This document shows positions 2,562 through 18,538 of a stretch of 64,000 nucleotides of DNA, in pieces (the stretch's first letter is position 1; every line of letters begins with the position of its first letter). Position numbers and translations under genes: made by a program. This DNA comes from Alphaproteobacteria bacterium. Its GTDB lineage: Bacteria > Pseudomonadota > Alphaproteobacteria > SP197. Below the pieces are notes generated by a model. It was not told the origin of the DNA, searched no databases, and saw only the letters and a list, made by a program, of their open reading frames with translations. The stretch covers positions 1,216,001 to 1,280,000 of the forward strand of contig OZ219920.1 in the NCBI GenBank assembly GCA_964291415.2, written 5' to 3'.

Positions 2562-3444
2562 GTCTCCATGCGACCTGATGGAATGGCCCCGGACCGGACT
2601 GCCACACGCACGGCGCATCCCGGTTCGTGGTCGTGCGTGCAGTCACGGAACCGACAGCGATGGCCGGTCTCGTCAATGTCGGGGAACAGCTCGGACAGTT
2701 CTTCGCGGGTGATGCCGGCAAGGCCCAGGGAACGGATTCCCGGAGTATCGATGAGGGCCGTGCCCCCACCAAGGTCATAGAGCGATGATCGGGCGGTGGT
2801 ATGCCTCCCTTGCCGCCGCCGGCCGCCGAGACCTCCGACGCGGGCATTCTGCGAGCCGGTCAGCGCGTTGACGAGGGAGGACTTTCCGACACCGCTCGGA
2901 CCGGTCAGGACAACGGTCTTTCCCCTGATACAGCCGACCAGCCGGTCCAGTCCTTCCCCCGTTGCCGCGGAAACCTCAATGATCGTCAGTCCCGCCCGGC
3001 GGTAATCGGCAAGGTCCGGACGCGGTCTCTCGAGGTCGATCTTGTTGAGCACGACAATGACCTCGACACCGCCTCTGGCGGCGATCACCGCGTAGCGGTC
3101 GATGATGCGGGGATGAAACGGCGGATTGGCCACCGAGACGACGACAAGGGCGTGATCGATGTTGGCTGCGAGAACGTGTTCCGTGGCACCCCCGGAAAGG
3201 CGCCTGCTGGCATCTCGTCGCCAACGGGCCAGCACCCCGCGTCTCTCAAGGACCGTGTCGATCCTCGGCGGCCTGGTTCCTGCTGTGACGCGCACCCGGT
3301 CGCCCACCACCGGATAGGGATCGATGCCCGGGCGTGGAGCGCAGCGTACCGGGTCACCATCCAGTTCCACGGTCACGAGTATTCCATGCACCTCGATGAC
3401 GCGGCAGATGCGCCCAATCCCCGTTGTCGACTTGGCAGGTCCTG

Positions 3445-3448
<4 letters not shown>
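2531..3448 (-). CDS. rsgA: Ribosome small subunit-dependent GTPase A
   Basis: Circularly permuted GTPase motifs NKID, GPSGVGKS, GRHTT and DTPG, plus a C-terminal Zn finger CRFRDCTHDHEPGC. Confidence 0.93.
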
Positions 3449-5121
<1,673 letters not shown>

Positions 5122-5241
5122 GGTCGGGGAGGCCTTCTGCACCTGTACACCGCGTCATGTTAGCACGACATGGTCATCGGCAAGACGCGTGAGCGCCCGT
5201 GAATTTGGCCACCGACGGGTGCGATGCCGTATGGTTGTCGC

Positions 5242-6513
5242 ATGACCTCGCTGTGCCGCACTTGCGGCCATCGGCCGCAATCCGGTTCCGAGGCTTGCGA
5301 TGCCTGCGGGTCACGACGCATCGTGAGCCATCCGGAGCTTGATGAACTCGCCATCGCCCATCTCGATTGCGACGCCTTCTATGCGACTATCGAGAAACGG
5401 GATCGACCGGAGCTTGCCGATGTGCCGGTGATCGTCGGCGGCCGCCATCGCGGGGTGGTCGCCGCCTGCTGCTATATTGCCCGGTCCTTCGGTGTGCGCT
5501 CGGCCATGCCCATGTTCCGAGCCCTGAAGCTGTGTCCTGAAGCCCATGTCATCGCCCCAGACATGGGGAAGTACGTCGCCACGGGGAATGAAGTCCGCAG
5601 CTTGATGCAGAACGTGACACCGCTGGTTGAGACACTCTCGATCGACGAGGCGTTCATGGATCTCTCCGGAACCAGGACCCTGCATGGTGGCTCGCCCGCC
5701 CGGACTCTTGCACGCCTGGCCAACCAGATCGATCGGGAGCTGGGCATCACGGTGTCCATCGGACTGAGTTACAACAAGTTTCTTGCCAAGATCGCCTCCG
5801 ACCTCGACAAGCCTTGCGGGTTTGCGATCATCGGTCGTGGCGAGGCACGGCGCTTTCTTGCCGACAAGCCCGTCAGCCTTCTCTGGGGCGTGGGCCATGC
5901 GACCCGTCGCCGCCTGGCACGCGACGGCATCACCCTGATCGGTGACCTTGCCCGCATCGATGAAGCGGAACTGGTCGCGCGCTACGGCAAGATTGGCCAC
6001 CGATTCTTCCGGTTCAGCCGGGGCGAGGATGATCGAGTGGTGGAGCCGGAAGGCGAGACTCGGAGCATTTCTTCCGAGACCACCCTCCATGACGACACGG
6101 CGGAGTTTCCGATACTGCGCAGGGTGCTCTGGCAGCTCTCGGAGAACGTCGCCGAACGCATGAAAAAGGCCGGATTGGCCTCAAGAGGTGTCGCGCTCAA
6201 ACTGAAGACCTCGAACTTTCGCATCATCACCCGCACCCGCCACCTGCAACATCCCACCCGATCGGCCGAGGAGATCTTTCTTGTCGGTGAAGGACTGTTG
6301 GCCCGCGAAACCGATGGCCGGCGCTTCCGTCTGATCGGCATCGGCGTGCACGACTTCGTCGATTCCAGAGATACCGCGTTTGGCGACCTCTTCGAGCACG
6401 CGCGAAAGCAGTCCAACGCACGGGTTGACGAGGCGCTCGATGCCGTCCGCGAGAAATTCGGGAAGGACTCGCTGGTCAGGGGCCGCGGCTTCGGCGACCC
6501 TTCGGAGCCGTAG
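5242..6513 (+). CDS. dinB: DNA polymerase IV
   Basis: Y-family motifs HLDCDAFYA, GVRSAMP, SIDEAF and NKFLAKIAS, with an N-terminal CxxC-x10-CxxC extension. Confidence 0.95.
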   Translation: MTSLCRTCGHRPQSGSEACDACGSRRIVSHPELDELAIAHLDCDAFYATIEKRDRPELADVPVIVGGRHRGVVAACCYIARSFGVRSAMPMFRALKLCPEAHVIAPDMGKYVATGNEVRSLMQNVTPLVETLSIDEAFMDLSGTRTLHGGSPARTLARLANQIDRELGITVSIGLSYNKFLAKIASDLDKPCGFAIIGRGEARRFLADKPVSLLWGVGHATRRRLARDGITLIGDLARIDEAELVARYGKIGHRFFRFSRGEDDRVVEPEGETRSISSETTLHDDTAEFPILRRVLWQLSENVAERMKKAGLASRGVALKLKTSNFRIITRTRHLQHPTRSAEEIFLVGEGLLARETDGRRFRLIGIGVHDFVDSRDTAFGDLFEHARKQSNARVDEALDAVREKFGKDSLVRGRGFGDPSEP

Positions 6514-7276: not shown

Positions 7277-8371
7277 ATGCCGGAATCTTTCGACCTGCTC
7301 GCCCTGGGTGGCGATGGCATCGGGCCGGAAGTAACCGGCTGCGCGCTCAAGGTTCTCGAGAAGGCCTGCGACAGCGACATTCGCGTCGACATTACCGAGG
7401 ATCTCCTGCACGGCGCCTGTTACGATGAAACAGGAACCTTCCTCGAGGAGACAACTCTCGACCACGCCAAAAGTGCGGACGCCGTTCTCGTCGGCGCCAC
7501 GGGAGGTCCTCGATGGGATCACATCCGCCCTGCCGGTGAGGCGGCCCAGTCGGACGGCCTCATGCAGTTGCGCATGGAACTCGACACCTATGCCGGCCTG
7601 CGCCCGGCACGCGCGATTGACTGTCTCGAACCGCTGACCCCCTATCGGCCGGGTCTGACGGCCGGTGCCGATGTGCTGGTGCTGCGGGAAATGACCGGTG
7701 GCAACTTCTTTTCCGCAGAGAGGGGAGTCGACCGGCCGCCGCAAGCCCCTCGGCGGGGATACGATCTCGGAGTCTATGACGAGTATCAGATAGCCCGCTT
7801 CGCCCACGTCGGCTTCCGGCTTGCCGAAAAAAGGCGCCGGCATCTTGTTTCGGCCGACAAGTCCAACGTCATGGAAATGCACGTCCTGTGGCGCGAAGTG
7901 GTCTCCGAGGTCGCCCTGGACTATCCCGGAATCACTCTGGAACATCTCTACGCCGACAACGCGAGCTACCAGCTCGCCCGCGACCCGGGACGATTCGACG
8001 TCATCATGGCCGACAACCTCTTCGGAGACGTACTGAGCGACCAGGCAGGCGTCATTGTCGCCAGCCTCGGCATGTTGCCTTCGGCCTGTCTGACCGGATG
8101 TCCCGACGACGCCACGCGGGTCCGCGGTATCTTCGAACCGGTCCACGGATCCGCCCCCGACATTGCCGGCGAGGGAATAGCCAATCCCGTCGGCGCCATT
8201 CTCTCGGTCGCCATGATGTTTGACTACGCCTTCGGCCGTGCGGATATCGCGAGGACCATCGAAGGCGCCGTGGTCGCTGCTCTCGAAGGGGGCGCCCGGA
8301 CGCGGGATCTCGGAGGCAGGCTCTCAAGTGCTGCCATGACCGACGCTGTTCTCGCAGAACTTGATGCCTGA
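7277..8371 (+). CDS. Isocitrate/isopropylmalate/tartrate dehydrogenase family protein (divergent LeuB paralogue)
   Basis: GDGIGPEV, ADKSNV, DNLFGDVLSD and FEPVHGSAPDIAGEGIANP. Confidence 0.88.
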   Translation: MPESFDLLALGGDGIGPEVTGCALKVLEKACDSDIRVDITEDLLHGACYDETGTFLEETTLDHAKSADAVLVGATGGPRWDHIRPAGEAAQSDGLMQLRMELDTYAGLRPARAIDCLEPLTPYRPGLTAGADVLVLREMTGGNFFSAERGVDRPPQAPRRGYDLGVYDEYQIARFAHVGFRLAEKRRRHLVSADKSNVMEMHVLWREVVSEVALDYPGITLEHLYADNASYQLARDPGRFDVIMADNLFGDVLSDQAGVIVASLGMLPSACLTGCPDDATRVRGIFEPVHGSAPDIAGEGIANPVGAILSVAMMFDYAFGRADIARTIEGAVVAALEGGARTRDLGGRLSSAAMTDAVLAELDA

Positions 8372-15760: not shown

Positions 15761-16681
15761 TTGAGCGCGCCGCAGGCGCCCTCCCCCACCCGCAGCGCGC
15801 TGCTCTCCGGAAACGGGGCAGCGCTCGTTCTCGTGGTTGCCTGGGGCATGAACTTTCCCCTGATCGAGCAGTTGCTGGGTCACTGGGACATCCTCTCGAC
15901 GACCCTGTCGCGCCAGATCATCGGAGCCACTCTCCTCGTCATGTTGCTGTGGATACGCACGCGACGCTTCCCGATCCATCGTGCTCTGCCCTGGCGGCGC
16001 ATGACCATCCTGGGGTTCATGGGTCCGTTCTGCGCATCACTGCTGACCACGCTCGCCGTCTTCTCTGCCGGATCCGTTGCGGTTGCCATCGTCTATGCCA
16101 TGGCGCCCCTGATCGCGGCCGTGGTGGCCCGGGTGTTCTTCGCCATTTCGCCCGCCCGGGGCATCATCATCGGCATCGCTCTGGCGGTGACCGGCGGACT
16201 CGTTGTCAAGATCCACGAATTCTCCAATGCGAGCATGACGGGGGGCGAAGGATTCATGTTTCTCGCCCTGGTGACCTGGACGTGGCATTCGATCGCCGCA
16301 CAGAGGTGGCTCAAGGGCTTCAGCCAGACGGAGATCGCCGCCTACACCATCCTGCCGGGAAGCATCCTTCTCACAGTGGCTGTGTTCATCGCCTGGGCAT
16401 CGGGCCTCGCAACCCTCAACGCACCGTTGACCGAAACCACGATCGTTCTCGCCGTCGCCATCGGTGTTGTGCCGATCGCCCTCGGCAACCTTATGTGGCA
16501 CGTCGGGGTCAACAGGCTGGGCGTGACCCCCATGGCTCTGTGGGGAAACCTGGTGCCGGTAGCCGCCATTGGCCTCGCTGCCTGGTTCGGCGCCGTACCG
16601 CAACCCGCACAGATCGCCGGCGGCCTCATCATTCTGGCCGGTGTCGTCTACGCCCAGGTCGCGTCACTCAGACAGCCATAG
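15761..16681 (+). CDS. DMT/EamA family transporter
   Basis: About 10 hydrophobic segments, an N-terminal AWGMNF motif and C-terminal NLVPV...GGLIILAGV. Confidence 0.85.
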   Translation: MSAPQAPSPTRSALLSGNGAALVLVVAWGMNFPLIEQLLGHWDILSTTLSRQIIGATLLVMLLWIRTRRFPIHRALPWRRMTILGFMGPFCASLLTTLAVFSAGSVAVAIVYAMAPLIAAVVARVFFAISPARGIIIGIALAVTGGLVVKIHEFSNASMTGGEGFMFLALVTWTWHSIAAQRWLKGFSQTEIAAYTILPGSILLTVAVFIAWASGLATLNAPLTETTIVLAVAIGVVPIALGNLMWHVGVNRLGVTPMALWGNLVPVAAIGLAAWFGAVPQPAQIAGGLIILAGVVYAQVASLRQP

Positions 16682-16900
16682 GCGAGAATCTGCGGCTGCG
16701 CTTGACTGCCGCCAATCCGACAAGCACGTCACGGCCACCGCTCGAAGGCGCCAAGTGTGTCCAGCATGACTACGATCGGGCGTGAGTGGCAACCCGTCCC
16801 CTACGACAGTATTCTGCTACCCGCATGTGTCTCGGGACAGTGATCGATCCCAATCCGGGCTTGTAGCGCACGTCCCGAAAACCTGTGTGAGGCATGGGGA

Positions 16901-17887
16901 ATGACATCACTGACCCTCTGGCAAAACATCGAGTCTCGCCTCGACTCGTCGCTCAAGGGCTGGCGAGGTCGGATCGACGATCTTGACCAGCTGGCGGCAG
17001 TCGAAGCCAGGTTGGCCGGCCAGACATGGAGCGACAATGAGACCTTCAAGGGGCTGTTGCTTGCGGTGCTGTCCAGCAACACCGACTGGTCGAAGATCGA
17101 GCGAATTCAGGATGAGTTGGCACAACTGTTTTCAGAATTCGATCTCGAATCGTTTGCCGAACTTCCGGCCTGCGAGGTCGGCGACCGGTTGCTGCCTTGG
17201 TTTCTCAACCGCAAGGCGGGGTCGATGACCCTCAAGCGGAACCTCGTCAATCTCATCGACGCCGCACGGTTGCTGAACGAGCACAGCCGCAATCACGGCA
17301 CAGCGGAAAGCTATTTCACCTCACTCTTGCGACATGTTGACGGAGACCCCAAACAGGCGGCGCTTCTCTTGGGATGCCGAAGCGAGTACAAGCTCCCCGC
17401 ATTCGGGGTGGCGTTGGCTGCCGAGGCACTCAAGAACCTTGGCTTCGACGTGGCCAAGCCCGACCGCCACGTCATCCGAGCCGTCGCTTCCTTCGGGCTG
17501 GTGCCCTTCCGGAATTGGCCCGACAGAACCGGCAGGTCTTCGCCAGCTGTCTCCTCCAGAACTTCCTATCTGGCAGTCATGGGAGCCGTGCAGGATCTTG
17601 CGACGGCTGCCGGCTTGCCTGTGGTCATGGTCGACAACGCTATCTGGCTACTATGCGCAAGGAGTGGTCTTTACCTTAGCAATCCGGAACTCGCCGAGAT
17701 GGCTCGCGAGAGCCGAGATACGACGGAACGCGCACAGACCCTCGGCTCACTGATCCGTTCCTGGGCGGAAGAGCAGGACGACGGTGAGCAACGGGAAACC
17801 ATTGAAGCCCTCGTCGATGGCCTGGATCGCGAGCGACTATCCCTGCGGAAGCTCTTTCCCGAGGAGTCGAAGGGGCGGAGCTGGTGA
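16901..17887 (+). CDS. Hypothetical protein: HhH DNA-glycosylase-like domain fused to a C-terminal antitoxin-like segment
   Basis: HhH-like KLPAFGVALAAEAL followed by AKPDRHV, and VDNAIW. The tail LIRSWAEEQDDGEQRETIEALVDGLDRERLSLRKLFP resembles small proteins I recall upstream of this PIN subfamily. Confidence 0.6.
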   Translation: MTSLTLWQNIESRLDSSLKGWRGRIDDLDQLAAVEARLAGQTWSDNETFKGLLLAVLSSNTDWSKIERIQDELAQLFSEFDLESFAELPACEVGDRLLPWFLNRKAGSMTLKRNLVNLIDAARLLNEHSRNHGTAESYFTSLLRHVDGDPKQAALLLGCRSEYKLPAFGVALAAEALKNLGFDVAKPDRHVIRAVASFGLVPFRNWPDRTGRSSPAVSSRTSYLAVMGAVQDLATAAGLPVVMVDNAIWLLCARSGLYLSNPELAEMARESRDTTERAQTLGSLIRSWAEEQDDGEQRETIEALVDGLDRERLSLRKLFPEESKGRSW

Positions 17888-18330
17888 CGCGCACCATATT
17901 GCTTGACAGTGGTCCTCTTGGCTTGGTCACCAATCCCAGGGCGTCGTCGATAGCTGCAGATTGCGGGGATTGGGTCGTGAACGCAATCCGCCGCGGCGCG
18001 ACAGTGTTGGTGCCTGAAATTGCTGATTATGAGGTGCGCCGGGAACTCATCAGGGCGCAACGCGACGCTGGTCTTGCGCGCCTCGACGCATTCATCGAAC
18101 AAGTTGAATTCCTGCCCATTGAAACCGCCGCAATGCGCCGAGCCGCATCGTTCTGGGCCGAAGCGCGCCGACAAGGAAGACCGACTGCACCGGATCCTGC
18201 GCTCGATGGCGACGTGATTCTGGCTGCACAGGCAGCTATTCTCGACCGCACTGATGTCATCATTGCCACGACCAATGCGAGACACCTGTCACGTTATGTC
18301 CCCGCGGAACTCTGGACCAATATCACCTGA
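17884..18330 (+). CDS. PIN-domain (VapC-like) toxin
   Basis: ILLDSGPLG, VPEIADYEVRREL, ALDGDVILAAQA and IATTN. GTGA overlap with the upstream gene. Confidence 0.88.
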   Translation: MTRTILLDSGPLGLVTNPRASSIAADCGDWVVNAIRRGATVLVPEIADYEVRRELIRAQRDAGLARLDAFIEQVEFLPIETAAMRRAASFWAEARRQGRPTAPDPALDGDVILAAQAAILDRTDVIIATTNARHLSRYVPAELWTNIT

Positions 18331-18538
18331 GTTCCGGGCCAAGCAGTTTCCAGCCGTGCCACACGCGTCCGCCAACGCTCGCATCAGCAGCCCAGCGCAA
18401 CCGATGCCCACGGGAATGGCTGTCCTCGCCCGTGAGTTGTGTCTCTGTGCCGGATGCGTGTCCGACGCCGTCATCAGCTTCGGAGCCCCAAACACACGAA
18501 GTCCTCGATGACCGCGCGGGATGTGGGTTGCGCGGGAT

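Follow-up and report, generated by a model that had tools for sequence, protein, structure and literature searches.

A putative VapBC/FitAB-like toxin-antitoxin cassette whose antitoxin carries a DNA glycosylase-like domain in place of a DNA-binding head

We analyzed a stretch of 64,000 nucleotides from the genome of an Alphaproteobacteria bacterium (assembly GCA_964291415.2, contig OZ219920.1, positions 1,216,001 to 1,280,000 of the forward strand; hereafter, the window), and focused on a cassette of two overlapping genes at window positions 16901 to 18330. The first gene encodes a protein of 328 amino acids (P0001), in which a helix-hairpin-helix (HhH-GPD) DNA glycosylase-like domain is followed by a short C-terminal tail, and the second encodes a PIN-domain protein of 148 amino acids (P0002). 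We consider it quite likely, based on sequence comparisons and structural models, that the pair forms a horizontally mobile cassette encoding a VapBC/FitAB-like type II toxin-antitoxin system, in which the DNA-binding head of the antitoxin has been replaced by the glycosylase domain. The locus comprises the following features.

16901..17887, plus strand: gene of the putative antitoxin-enzyme P0001 (328 amino acids), with an ATG start.
16901..17020, plus strand: N-terminal helical extension of P0001, amino acids 1-40 (helices 3-17, 21-26 and 30-38; AlphaFold2 predicted local distance difference test score (pLDDT) 89-98).
17021..17695, plus strand: HhH-GPD-type DNA glycosylase-like domain, amino acids ~41-265, identified by Foldseek, sub-threshold profiles and the alignment around D188.
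17696..17887, plus strand: predicted PIN-neutralising antitoxin tail, amino acids 266-328 with the stop codon included, identified by the tail profile and the complex model.
17882..17887, plus strand: TGGTGA junction, comprising the last Trp codon and stop codon of the antitoxin gene and overlapping the GTG start of the PIN gene; the hexamer is shared by 25 of the 26 foreign loci whose PIN gene is intact.
17884..18330, plus strand: gene of the VapC-like PIN-domain putative toxin P0002 (148 amino acids), with a GTG start, identified by an AlphaFold2 model (pLDDT 88.1), Foldseek matches to VapC and FitB, and an alignment of 20 sequences.
16820..16857, plus strand: promoter-like block upstream of the cassette, putative in function, identified in an alignment of 17 upstream regions.

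The stop codon of the P0001 gene and the start codon of the P0002 gene share the letters GTGA within the TGGTGA hexamer. This junction recurs beyond the window's own copy in all but one of the foreign loci with a full-length PIN gene, the exception being locus L019, and the two genes are in all likelihood translationally coupled through it. A first-pass annotation of the same DNA had described the overlapping 328- and 148-amino-acid genes, quoted several motifs from the first protein and noted the absence of a separate small antitoxin gene, and all of this held up on inspection. Both open reading frames (ORFs) and their overlap were recovered, and the translation of P0001 contains SDNETFKGLLLAVLS, DWSKI, KLPAFGVALAA, KPDRHV and VDNAIW, as well as the tail pattern LIRSW..EQRET..LD.ERLS.RKLFP. 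No ORF for a separate small antitoxin lies between the upstream EamA gene (15761-16681) and position 16901. A small hairpin, TGGTG-ACGCG-CACCA, spans the stop/start overlap at 17882-17896 and might modulate the translational coupling.

The AlphaFold2 model of P0001, computed from an alignment of 51 sequences, had a mean pLDDT of 87.7 and a predicted template modelling (pTM) score of 0.79. It was confident over amino acids 1-265, and the tail, modelled here without the PIN protein, formed two helices of lower confidence. A Foldseek comparison with the Protein Data Bank (PDB) ranked the MjOgg structure 3knt first (E 1.2e-4, template modelling score normalised by the target (TMt) 0.72), followed by TM1821 (3n0u) and 3fhf. 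These three entries, Ogg2-type 8-oxoguanine glycosylases, supplied all six matches at E ≤ 1e-3, and weaker matches included EndoIII, MutY, TAG, a DUF2419 queuine-salvage enzyme and AGOG. The N-terminal domain is hence predicted to adopt the two-lobed, all-helical HhH-GPD fold, as the first-pass annotation had proposed from a handful of motifs.

The arrangement of catalytic positions points in the same direction as the fold. The HhH hairpin, LPAFGVALAAEALKNLG, occupies amino acids 165-181 and is followed by the Pro-Asp loop AKPDRH, which contains D188, and by the VDNAIW motif at amino acids 244-249. In a phmmer alignment to MjOgg, AFGVALAAEALKNLGFD-VAKPDRH pairs with the ..IID147RH.. segment, such that D188 corresponds to D147 and A171 to K129 (this Lys is replaced by Gln in the DNA-trapped structure 3knt and is present in 3fhf). 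We take K129 and D147 of MjOgg to be the Ogg2 catalytic pair. The aspartate, kept in 47 of 49 relatives (33 of 33 tail-bearing proteins and 14 of 16 others, with Glu in L035 and L036), is strongly constrained, and position 171 holds A, P, T, S, R or I in all 49, never Lys. This matches the earlier assignment of the Asp of KPDRH as the glycosylase aspartate and of the domain as one without the HhH lysine. Since the lyase Lys is lacking at position 171, the domain would be at most a monofunctional enzyme. P187, H190, D45, S58, W63 and D245 are likewise invariant across the 49 relatives, and in an alignment of 24 sequences, invariant residues occur in the tail, whose C-terminal Trp is one of them, as well as in the VDN motif and the HhH region.

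Profile searches with P0001 yielded sub-threshold matches to glycosylase families: Adenine_glyco (E 1.4e-3), Ogg-HhH (E 0.12) and an Ogg2-type NCBIfam model (E 1.1e-3, over amino acids 44-251). One relative, L037, exceeds the PF03352 cut-off (26.7 versus 25 bits). We assign the domain to no named family and regard it as a new, divergent Ogg2/TAG-like subfamily. The N-terminal extension, in which L6, W7, L14 and W21 are invariant, probably lies outside the glycosylase core, since the sub-threshold glycosylase matches all begin at amino acids 42-44. Compared with the Ogg2 enzymes (MjOgg 3knt and 3fhf, TM1821 3n0u, SsOgg 3fhg) and the 3-methyladenine glycosylase I TAG, P0001 shares the fold (TMt 0.66-0.73 at 21-23% identity), and both its hairpin and its ..DRH.. 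Asp align with theirs; it differs in having no lyase Lys (A171), and in carrying the additional N-terminal three-helix extension, an insertion at amino acids ~200-220 and the antitoxin tail. We also considered the PADLOC 'OGG' model PDLC00910, presumably describing an ancillary protein of type IV cyclic oligonucleotide-based antiphage signalling systems (CBASS). It matches P0001 only at amino acids 164-199 (36 amino acids of HhH motif, E 8.4e-5), and with such a short match and no cyclase or other CBASS gene among the neighbours, membership in this family was rejected.

The second gene of the cassette encodes a protein whose closest structural relatives are toxins. Foldseek matched the AlphaFold2 model of P0002 best to the VapC proteins of Shigella, the F plasmid, Rickettsia and M. 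tuberculosis, and also to FitB, with template modelling scores of 0.6-0.7. Nineteen PDB matches had E ≤ 1e-3; among those listed were VapC toxins and the uncharacterised archaeal protein 1y82, and FitB came next at E 2.2e-3. A sequence profile built from 20 PIN sequences found no meaningful match among PDB sequences. Within these 20 sequences, D8, E50, E54, D108, D110 and T129-T130-N131 are invariant; judged from order and spacing, they would map onto the four canonical PIN positions, the last of which is occupied by Asn rather than Asp. P0002 is presumed to be toxic and to act as an RNase. The PIN family appears to be rare: among 401 genomes of the window's phylum, a convincing match was found only in the genome of the window itself, and the other three matches were marginal (E 1.7e-5 to 6.9e-4), two of them with internal stops, so this comparison supplied no local setting in which small antitoxins could be sought.

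What connects the two proteins is the tail of P0001, which consists of two helices and a C-terminal RKLFPEE..KGRSW segment. A word search for stand-alone tails returned only five matches (67-84% identity), which look like fragments of the glycosylase-tail fusion; it took a profile search to reveal the true family of small proteins. This profile, built from 25 tails and run against 1.84 billion cluster representatives, matched 940 proteins at E ≤ 1e-3, of which 163 reached E ≤ 1e-10. Among the 150 matches listed, most are 55-110 amino acids long and carry the motif at their C-terminus, a form of 93-95 amino acids being common. Proteins of 94 amino acids begin with a segment resembling a ribbon-helix-helix (RHH) domain and end in ...LDEDRLS.RKLFP..LKG.TW; FitA-like_RHH was found below threshold in six of ten such proteins scanned, alongside HicB, NikA and ParD. 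Longer tail proteins carry other heads that pass the Pfam cut-off, namely Phd/YefM (P0192, P0244), an HI1420-type antidote (P0144), DUF433 (P0164) and the helix-turn-helix (HTH) domain HTH_17 (P0272). No Pfam or NCBIfam model covered the tail in any tail-bearing protein scanned.

Annotated cyanobacterial plasmids show the tail in its more usual setting. On the Nostoc sp. UHCC 0870 plasmid NZ_CP091915.1, the gene of a 'nuclease' with 55.8% identity to P0002 is preceded by that of a 94-amino-acid RHH-tail 'hypothetical protein', and the two genes overlap by 4 nt. A 117-amino-acid protein with a variant tail, encoded on the Pseudanabaena plasmid NZ_CP112875.1, likewise overlaps by 4 nt a PIN gene whose product is 49.7% identical to P0002, and a second Pseudanabaena record holds a PIN match at 49.0% identity. 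On a Calothrix plasmid, 14 nt separate a more distant PIN gene (39.9% identity) from the upstream gene of a 137-amino-acid protein, whose tail is divergent and only partial. These pairs, together with the profile matches, bear out the statement in the first-pass annotation that the tail resembles stand-alone small proteins upstream of such PIN genes. Within the window's own genome, the tail profile found this copy only. PDB sequence matches to the tail region were limited to designed cage proteins, which we set aside as artefacts of helix composition. Three proteins, P0129 (281 amino acids), P0154 (215 amino acids) and P0200 (213 amino acids), each carry the tail motif three times in tandem and show no recognised head; such proteins might bind several PIN partners at once.

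We next turned to a structural prediction of the complex between the PIN protein and amino acids 266-328 of P0001, a model that had been suggested in the initial annotation. The interaction prediction score from aligned errors (ipSAE) was 0.81, 0.89 and 0.89 (median 0.89), compared with 0.01 for the best of three controls. The mark applied to this score is reached by 58 of 80 solved complexes and by 2 of 110 mismatched pairs, counts that are only a rough calibration because our own alignments were used. The runs agreed in at least 89% of contacts, and the pLDDT of the partners was at least 80. In the predicted interface, PIN residues 8-10, 50-55, 106-110 and 129-131 face tail residues 274-328, and all nine invariant residues of the tail (L284, W288, T300, R312, K317, F319, P320, K324 and W328) take part. 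The tail is therefore predicted to bind the PIN protein in a geometry that occludes its active site. Taken together, we regard the tail as a widespread, probably PIN-neutralising antitoxin module that usually follows classical antitoxin DNA-binding heads.

The fusion is by no means particular to this assembly. A word-seeded search covering 5.8 billion proteins recovered 367 homologues of P0001 at E ≤ 1e-3. Of the best 120, none carries a name and 113 cover at least 98% of the 328 amino acids; with such coverage and a conserved junction, a chance loss of a stop codon as the origin of the fusion was rejected. We then examined one genome per species, which yielded 58 loci, all from metagenome-assembled genomes, and checked every ORF of at least 40 amino acids in them for resemblance to the PIN protein, the HhH protein or the tail. 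The linkage expected of a toxin-antitoxin pair was complete: a PIN gene or PIN fragment lies directly downstream in all 36 tail-bearing loci, and in none of the 22 loci with a tail-less HhH protein, a set that includes the fragmentary loci L042, L052-L054, L057 and L058. The first-pass annotation had called for homologues that retain both the fusion and the PIN gene, and these loci supply them.

Linkage is accompanied by frequent decay. The PIN gene is full-length in 26 of the 36 tail-bearing loci, and the other 10 have decayed: the PIN gene is truncated in L013 and L022 and split in L021 and L049, and L048, L050 and L059 have a broken HhH gene. In three loci of Ca. Foliamicus (L029, 4001-5149; L032, 4001-5149; L056, 3986-5201), an intact HhH-tail gene stands beside a C-terminal PIN remnant of 41-51 amino acids, and these loci appear to have lost the toxin and kept the antitoxin-enzyme. 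Nei-Gojobori dN/dS estimates (the ratio of nonsynonymous to synonymous substitution rates) for 11 pairs ranged from 0.12 to 0.33 for the HhH domain, from 0.06 to 0.31 for the PIN gene and from 0.04 to 1.03 for the tail, whose 63 codons make a short and noisy sample. These values point to purifying selection on all three parts, the estimate for the tail being the noisy one.

By record titles, the tail-bearing form occurs in Alpha- and Gammaproteobacteria (Pseudomonadota), Bryobacterales (Acidobacteriota) and Binatota, and forms without the tail come from Gemmatimonadota, Latescibacterota, Bryobacterales and Gammaproteobacteria. Stand-alone domain forms (262-306 amino acids, 12 intact loci) nest within the tree of tail-bearing forms. 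In a quick, unrooted tree built from the HhH columns only, a single clade of tail-bearing forms was rejected (approximately unbiased test, p 0.025), and at least three changes are needed; such a tree fits tail gains as well as tail losses. The tail-bearing forms being non-monophyletic, the HhH domain evidently survives both with and without the toxin-antitoxin part.

Several observations indicate that the cassette is horizontally mobile, namely flanks that differ between lineages, presence in three phyla, and a GC content of 58-61% compared with 63-67% in the flanks. When 17 upstream regions were aligned, similarity among copies started ~100 nt before the start codon, and the farther flanks were unrelated. 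The alphaproteobacterial copies (L003-L020) share the consensus CTTGT-N17-CCTAAT, ~60-95 nt upstream of the start, which marks the left edge of the cassette. The window's copy of this block has diverged, and a weak palindrome (77% complementary) lies at 16835-16856.

In the arrangement that we favour, the toxin would be a VapC-like PIN nuclease, presumably an RNase, and the antitoxin would be modular. Its last ~60 residues would wrap the PIN protein and cover the acidic active site, and a 265-amino-acid Ogg2/TAG-type HhH-GPD domain would stand where a small DNA-binding head (RHH, Phd/YefM, HTH or DUF433) normally precedes the tail. The resemblance to VapBC and FitAB is extensive: the antitoxin gene lies upstream and is apparently translationally coupled, VapC and FitB are the nearest relatives of the PIN fold, the C-terminal part of the antitoxin is predicted to lie over the PIN active site, the usual partners of the tail are FitA-like RHH, Phd/YefM and HTH heads, and the cassette is chromosomal here, mobile and often decaying. 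It departs from these systems in that their small sequence-specific head (RHH, AbrB, Phd/YefM or HTH) is replaced by the 265-amino-acid HhH domain with its catalytic Asp, in that the tail has no Pfam or NCBIfam match in the proteins scanned, and in that the PIN protein falls below the Pfam and NCBIfam cut-offs. The kind of system, a type II toxin-antitoxin pair, is thus a known one, and what is new is the architecture of its antitoxin. Type II antitoxins combine a toxin-binding tail with a small DNA-binding head; here, the head is a whole base-excision enzyme domain, which looks catalytically competent from its residues and has been kept across three phyla. Along the way, we defined two families to which we could assign no existing model, the tail, predicted to neutralise PIN proteins (940 clusters), and the divergent Ogg2/TAG-like glycosylase subfamily.

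Some findings weigh against this interpretation. Both proteins fall below curated cut-offs: P0001 scores 19 versus 25 bits for PF03352, 12.4 versus 27 for PF22175 and 18.4 versus 183 for NF002305, and P0002 scores 19.4 versus 23.6 bits for PF01850 (E 1.7e-3) and 19.8 versus 140 for the VapC model NF047863. The complex score may in part reflect the model's memory of solved VapBC complexes. With 10 of 36 tail-bearing loci degraded, the cassette is often dispensable. A simple scan of the region upstream in the window found no sigma-70 consensus and no clear operator-like palindrome beyond the weak one, leaving classical autoregulation without support. Finally, HhH-GPD domains bind DNA without sequence specificity, which makes them a poor fit to an operator-binding role.

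As for the HhH domain itself, it most likely still acts as a monofunctional glycosylase, or at the least binds DNA by base flipping, and has a function of its own instead of serving simply as an operator-binding head, because it is under purifying selection, keeps the catalytic Asp and persists in lineages that have neither tail nor PIN. We infer both the glycosylase activity and any coupling of DNA-base recognition to toxin release. An antitoxin built around a DNA-acting enzyme domain has a precedent in DarTG, where the DarG macrodomain reverses the toxin's own DNA modification. The present cassette resembles DarTG in having such a domain within the antitoxin, and differs in that no chemical link between a glycosylase and a PIN RNase is evident and in that neutralisation is predicted to be exerted by the tail. 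In full-text searches, we found no description of a glycosylase-antitoxin fusion, although supplementary tables of the papers on Dag and END proteins, discussed below, might list relatives.

Within the toxin-antitoxin interpretation, one account of the unusual head is that of a repair gene stabilised by addiction, namely an ordinary accessory base-excision enzyme tied to a selfish PIN toxin by the tail, with no cross-talk between them. We hold this account to be possible, though on balance unlikely. The nesting of stand-alone domain forms among tail-bearing ones implies that the domain functions without tail and PIN, the three Ca. Foliamicus loci keep the HhH-tail gene beside a mere PIN remnant, and the flanks consist of housekeeping genes. 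A further point in its favour comes from a distant stand-alone homologue on a plasmid of Cupriavidus pinatubonensis (L068; NZ_CP080768.1, 202367-203251), annotated as 'hypothetical protein', which is 27% identical over amino acids 21-271 (E 3e-20) and lies ~2 kb from an imuA-imuB-dnaE2 mutagenesis cassette. However, the fusion and its invariant junction are kept down to 44% identity, which suggests selection on the combination, and addiction alone can hardly explain the parallel fusion of the same domain to a defence-candidate nuclease, described next. If the domain only repairs DNA, the cassette would clearly exemplify how a selfish toxin can, through fusion, stabilise a useful gene.

This second nuclease partner was detected in Bryobacterales, where the HhH domain is part of proteins of 628-656 amino acids (L031, 3917-5887; L037, 4001-5887; L046, 4001-5887). 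In L045, the domain is encoded by a separate gene of 296 amino acids that adjoins the nuclease gene (4001-5008 plus 4996-5886). The C-terminal half of the fusions resembles NucS_C plus DUF5655 (NCBIfam NucS at E 2.6e-4; an Atlas feature score of 0.95 to DUF5655/NucS_C clusters), and a match of the nuclease to PDC-S18, a phage-defence candidate in PADLOC, spans almost the entire model (E 2.1e-65); PADLOC PDC models describe candidates rather than proven defences. The four loci form one clade with a support of 97 in the Shimodaira-Hasegawa-like approximate likelihood ratio test (SH-aLRT), and a full-text search found no papers naming PDC-S18. With the HhH domain fused to a PDC-S18-type nuclease as well as tied to a PIN protein, it has been joined twice to nuclease-type effectors.

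These fusions lend some weight to a reading in which the antitoxin is also a sensor, one that builds on the toxin-antitoxin architecture rather than replacing it and that elaborates the defence or guard module proposed in the first-pass annotation. The HhH domain would sense phage-modified or heavily damaged bases, the antitoxin would thereby be sequestered or destabilised, and the freed PIN RNase would bring about abortive infection. We find this scenario doubtful. Besides the PDC-S18-type fusions, the spread of the cassette across phyla and the closest fold relatives, which are guanine-lesion enzymes, speak for it, as do two recently described groups of HhH-superfamily proteins. According to a preprint on Dag proteins (bioRxiv 10.1101/2025.10.29.685425), Dag1, Dag2 and 17 of 22 tested clusters of HhH-superfamily glycosylases are anti-phage, protecting against phages with 7-deazaguanine DNA. 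Dag proteins and Brig1 resemble P0001 in being divergent HhH glycosylase folds that escape sequence annotation and travel on mobile DNA. Dag proteins differ in acting as effectors encoded by one gene, and Dag1, with its Lys-Asp pair, seems to be bifunctional, whereas P0001 lacks such a Lys and has a toxin-antitoxin partner. In END nucleases, as reported (PMC12191111), inactivated EndoIII/Ogg domains sense hypermodified DNA and are fused to a nuclease. END proteins and our cassette thus share the physical coupling of an HhH-superfamily domain to a nuclease effector. END domains are without catalytic residues and have a fused PLD nuclease, whereas in our cassette the Asp is kept and the PIN protein is separate, predicted to be held via the antitoxin tail; the one-chain layout is shared only by the Bryobacterales HhH and PDC-S18 proteins, which keep the catalytic Asp.

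Set against the sensor scenario is, first of all, the genomic context. The flanks of 24 loci (125 ORFs scanned) differ between lineages and hold mostly metabolic and housekeeping or catabolic genes, with no enrichment near defence genes, a point that the first-pass annotation had proposed to test. Neighbours resembling toxin-antitoxin or defence genes occur in 3 of the 24, namely L017 (AbiEi and HTH genes), L025 (a second PIN gene) and L019 (DUF3800). In addition, the PADLOC match of P0001 is confined to the 36-amino-acid HhH motif of 'OGG', and no record in the phage collection searched matched P0001. The retained catalytic Asp also counts against this scenario: an active glycosylase could itself damage modified DNA, leaving the PIN protein without an obvious need. 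We know of no mechanism by which the binding of a substrate to an HhH domain would set free a C-terminal tail, which further argues against sensing.

A more specific, and still more speculative, version of sensing is a toxin-antitoxin switch triggered by bases. The glycosylase head would flip phage-modified or massively damaged bases, the antitoxin thus engaged or trapped would lose its hold on the PIN protein or fail to replenish it, and the PIN protein would shut down the cell; the Bryobacterales HhH-PDC-S18 proteins would be a one-chain, DNA-cutting version of the same principle. If base recognition does control toxin release, this would be a new trigger logic for toxin-antitoxin and abortive-infection systems and would tie in with the use of HhH glycosylase folds as anti-phage effectors and sensors. 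Combined with the Bryobacterales fusions, sensing, if true, would point to a family of base-excision-fold sensors that arm different effectors. A generic role of the HhH domain as a DNA tether or regulator takes up the remainder of our expectation.

Lastly, we think it very improbable that the cassette is a glycosylase-nuclease complex for repair or restriction, with the tail docking a non-toxic PIN protein as the strand-cleaving partner of a glycosylase that has no lyase Lys (in the Bryobacterales fusions, the NucS-like nuclease would take this role in cis): some PIN-like nucleases of the FEN/PIN-like superfamily do act on DNA, the lyase Lys is missing in all 49 relatives and the domain is independently tied to a second type of nuclease, but the predicted interface buries D8, E50-E54, D108-D110 and T129-N131 of the PIN protein, an inhibitory geometry, the same tail and PIN family occur behind classical antitoxin heads in proteins of 90-130 amino acids, and the nearest solved structures are VapC RNase toxins.

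Returning to the genomic surroundings of the putative toxin-antitoxin cassette, its neighbours in the window are genes for an Oxidored_FMN/FAD oxidoreductase, the EamA transporter (15761-16681) and an AMP-binding ligase, as well as a minus-strand gene for a DAO oxidoreductase. In L017, the AbiEi antitoxin gene and the HTH gene lie beside the cassette (3077-3685 and 5960-6385), and in L025 the second PIN gene, a canonical one (7810-8307), lies 2.4 kb downstream of it.

The cassette also recurs in environmental sequence data. Three further runs labelled sponge metagenome, an RNA library among them, contain contigs with near-identical pieces of it (window 16750-18400); parts of the cassette left uncovered carry no weight. 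A 265-nt contig from the RNA library covers 16750-17003 without a difference, which shows presence in this type of sample rather than transcription, and a 245-nt DNA contig from the sponge-metagenome runs crosses the junction between tail and PIN. Many of the related loci belong to Ca. Palauibacter, Ca. Foliamicus, Binatota and Latescibacterota, lineages that we take to be sponge-associated, and the overall pattern suggests that the cassette has spread within one habitat.

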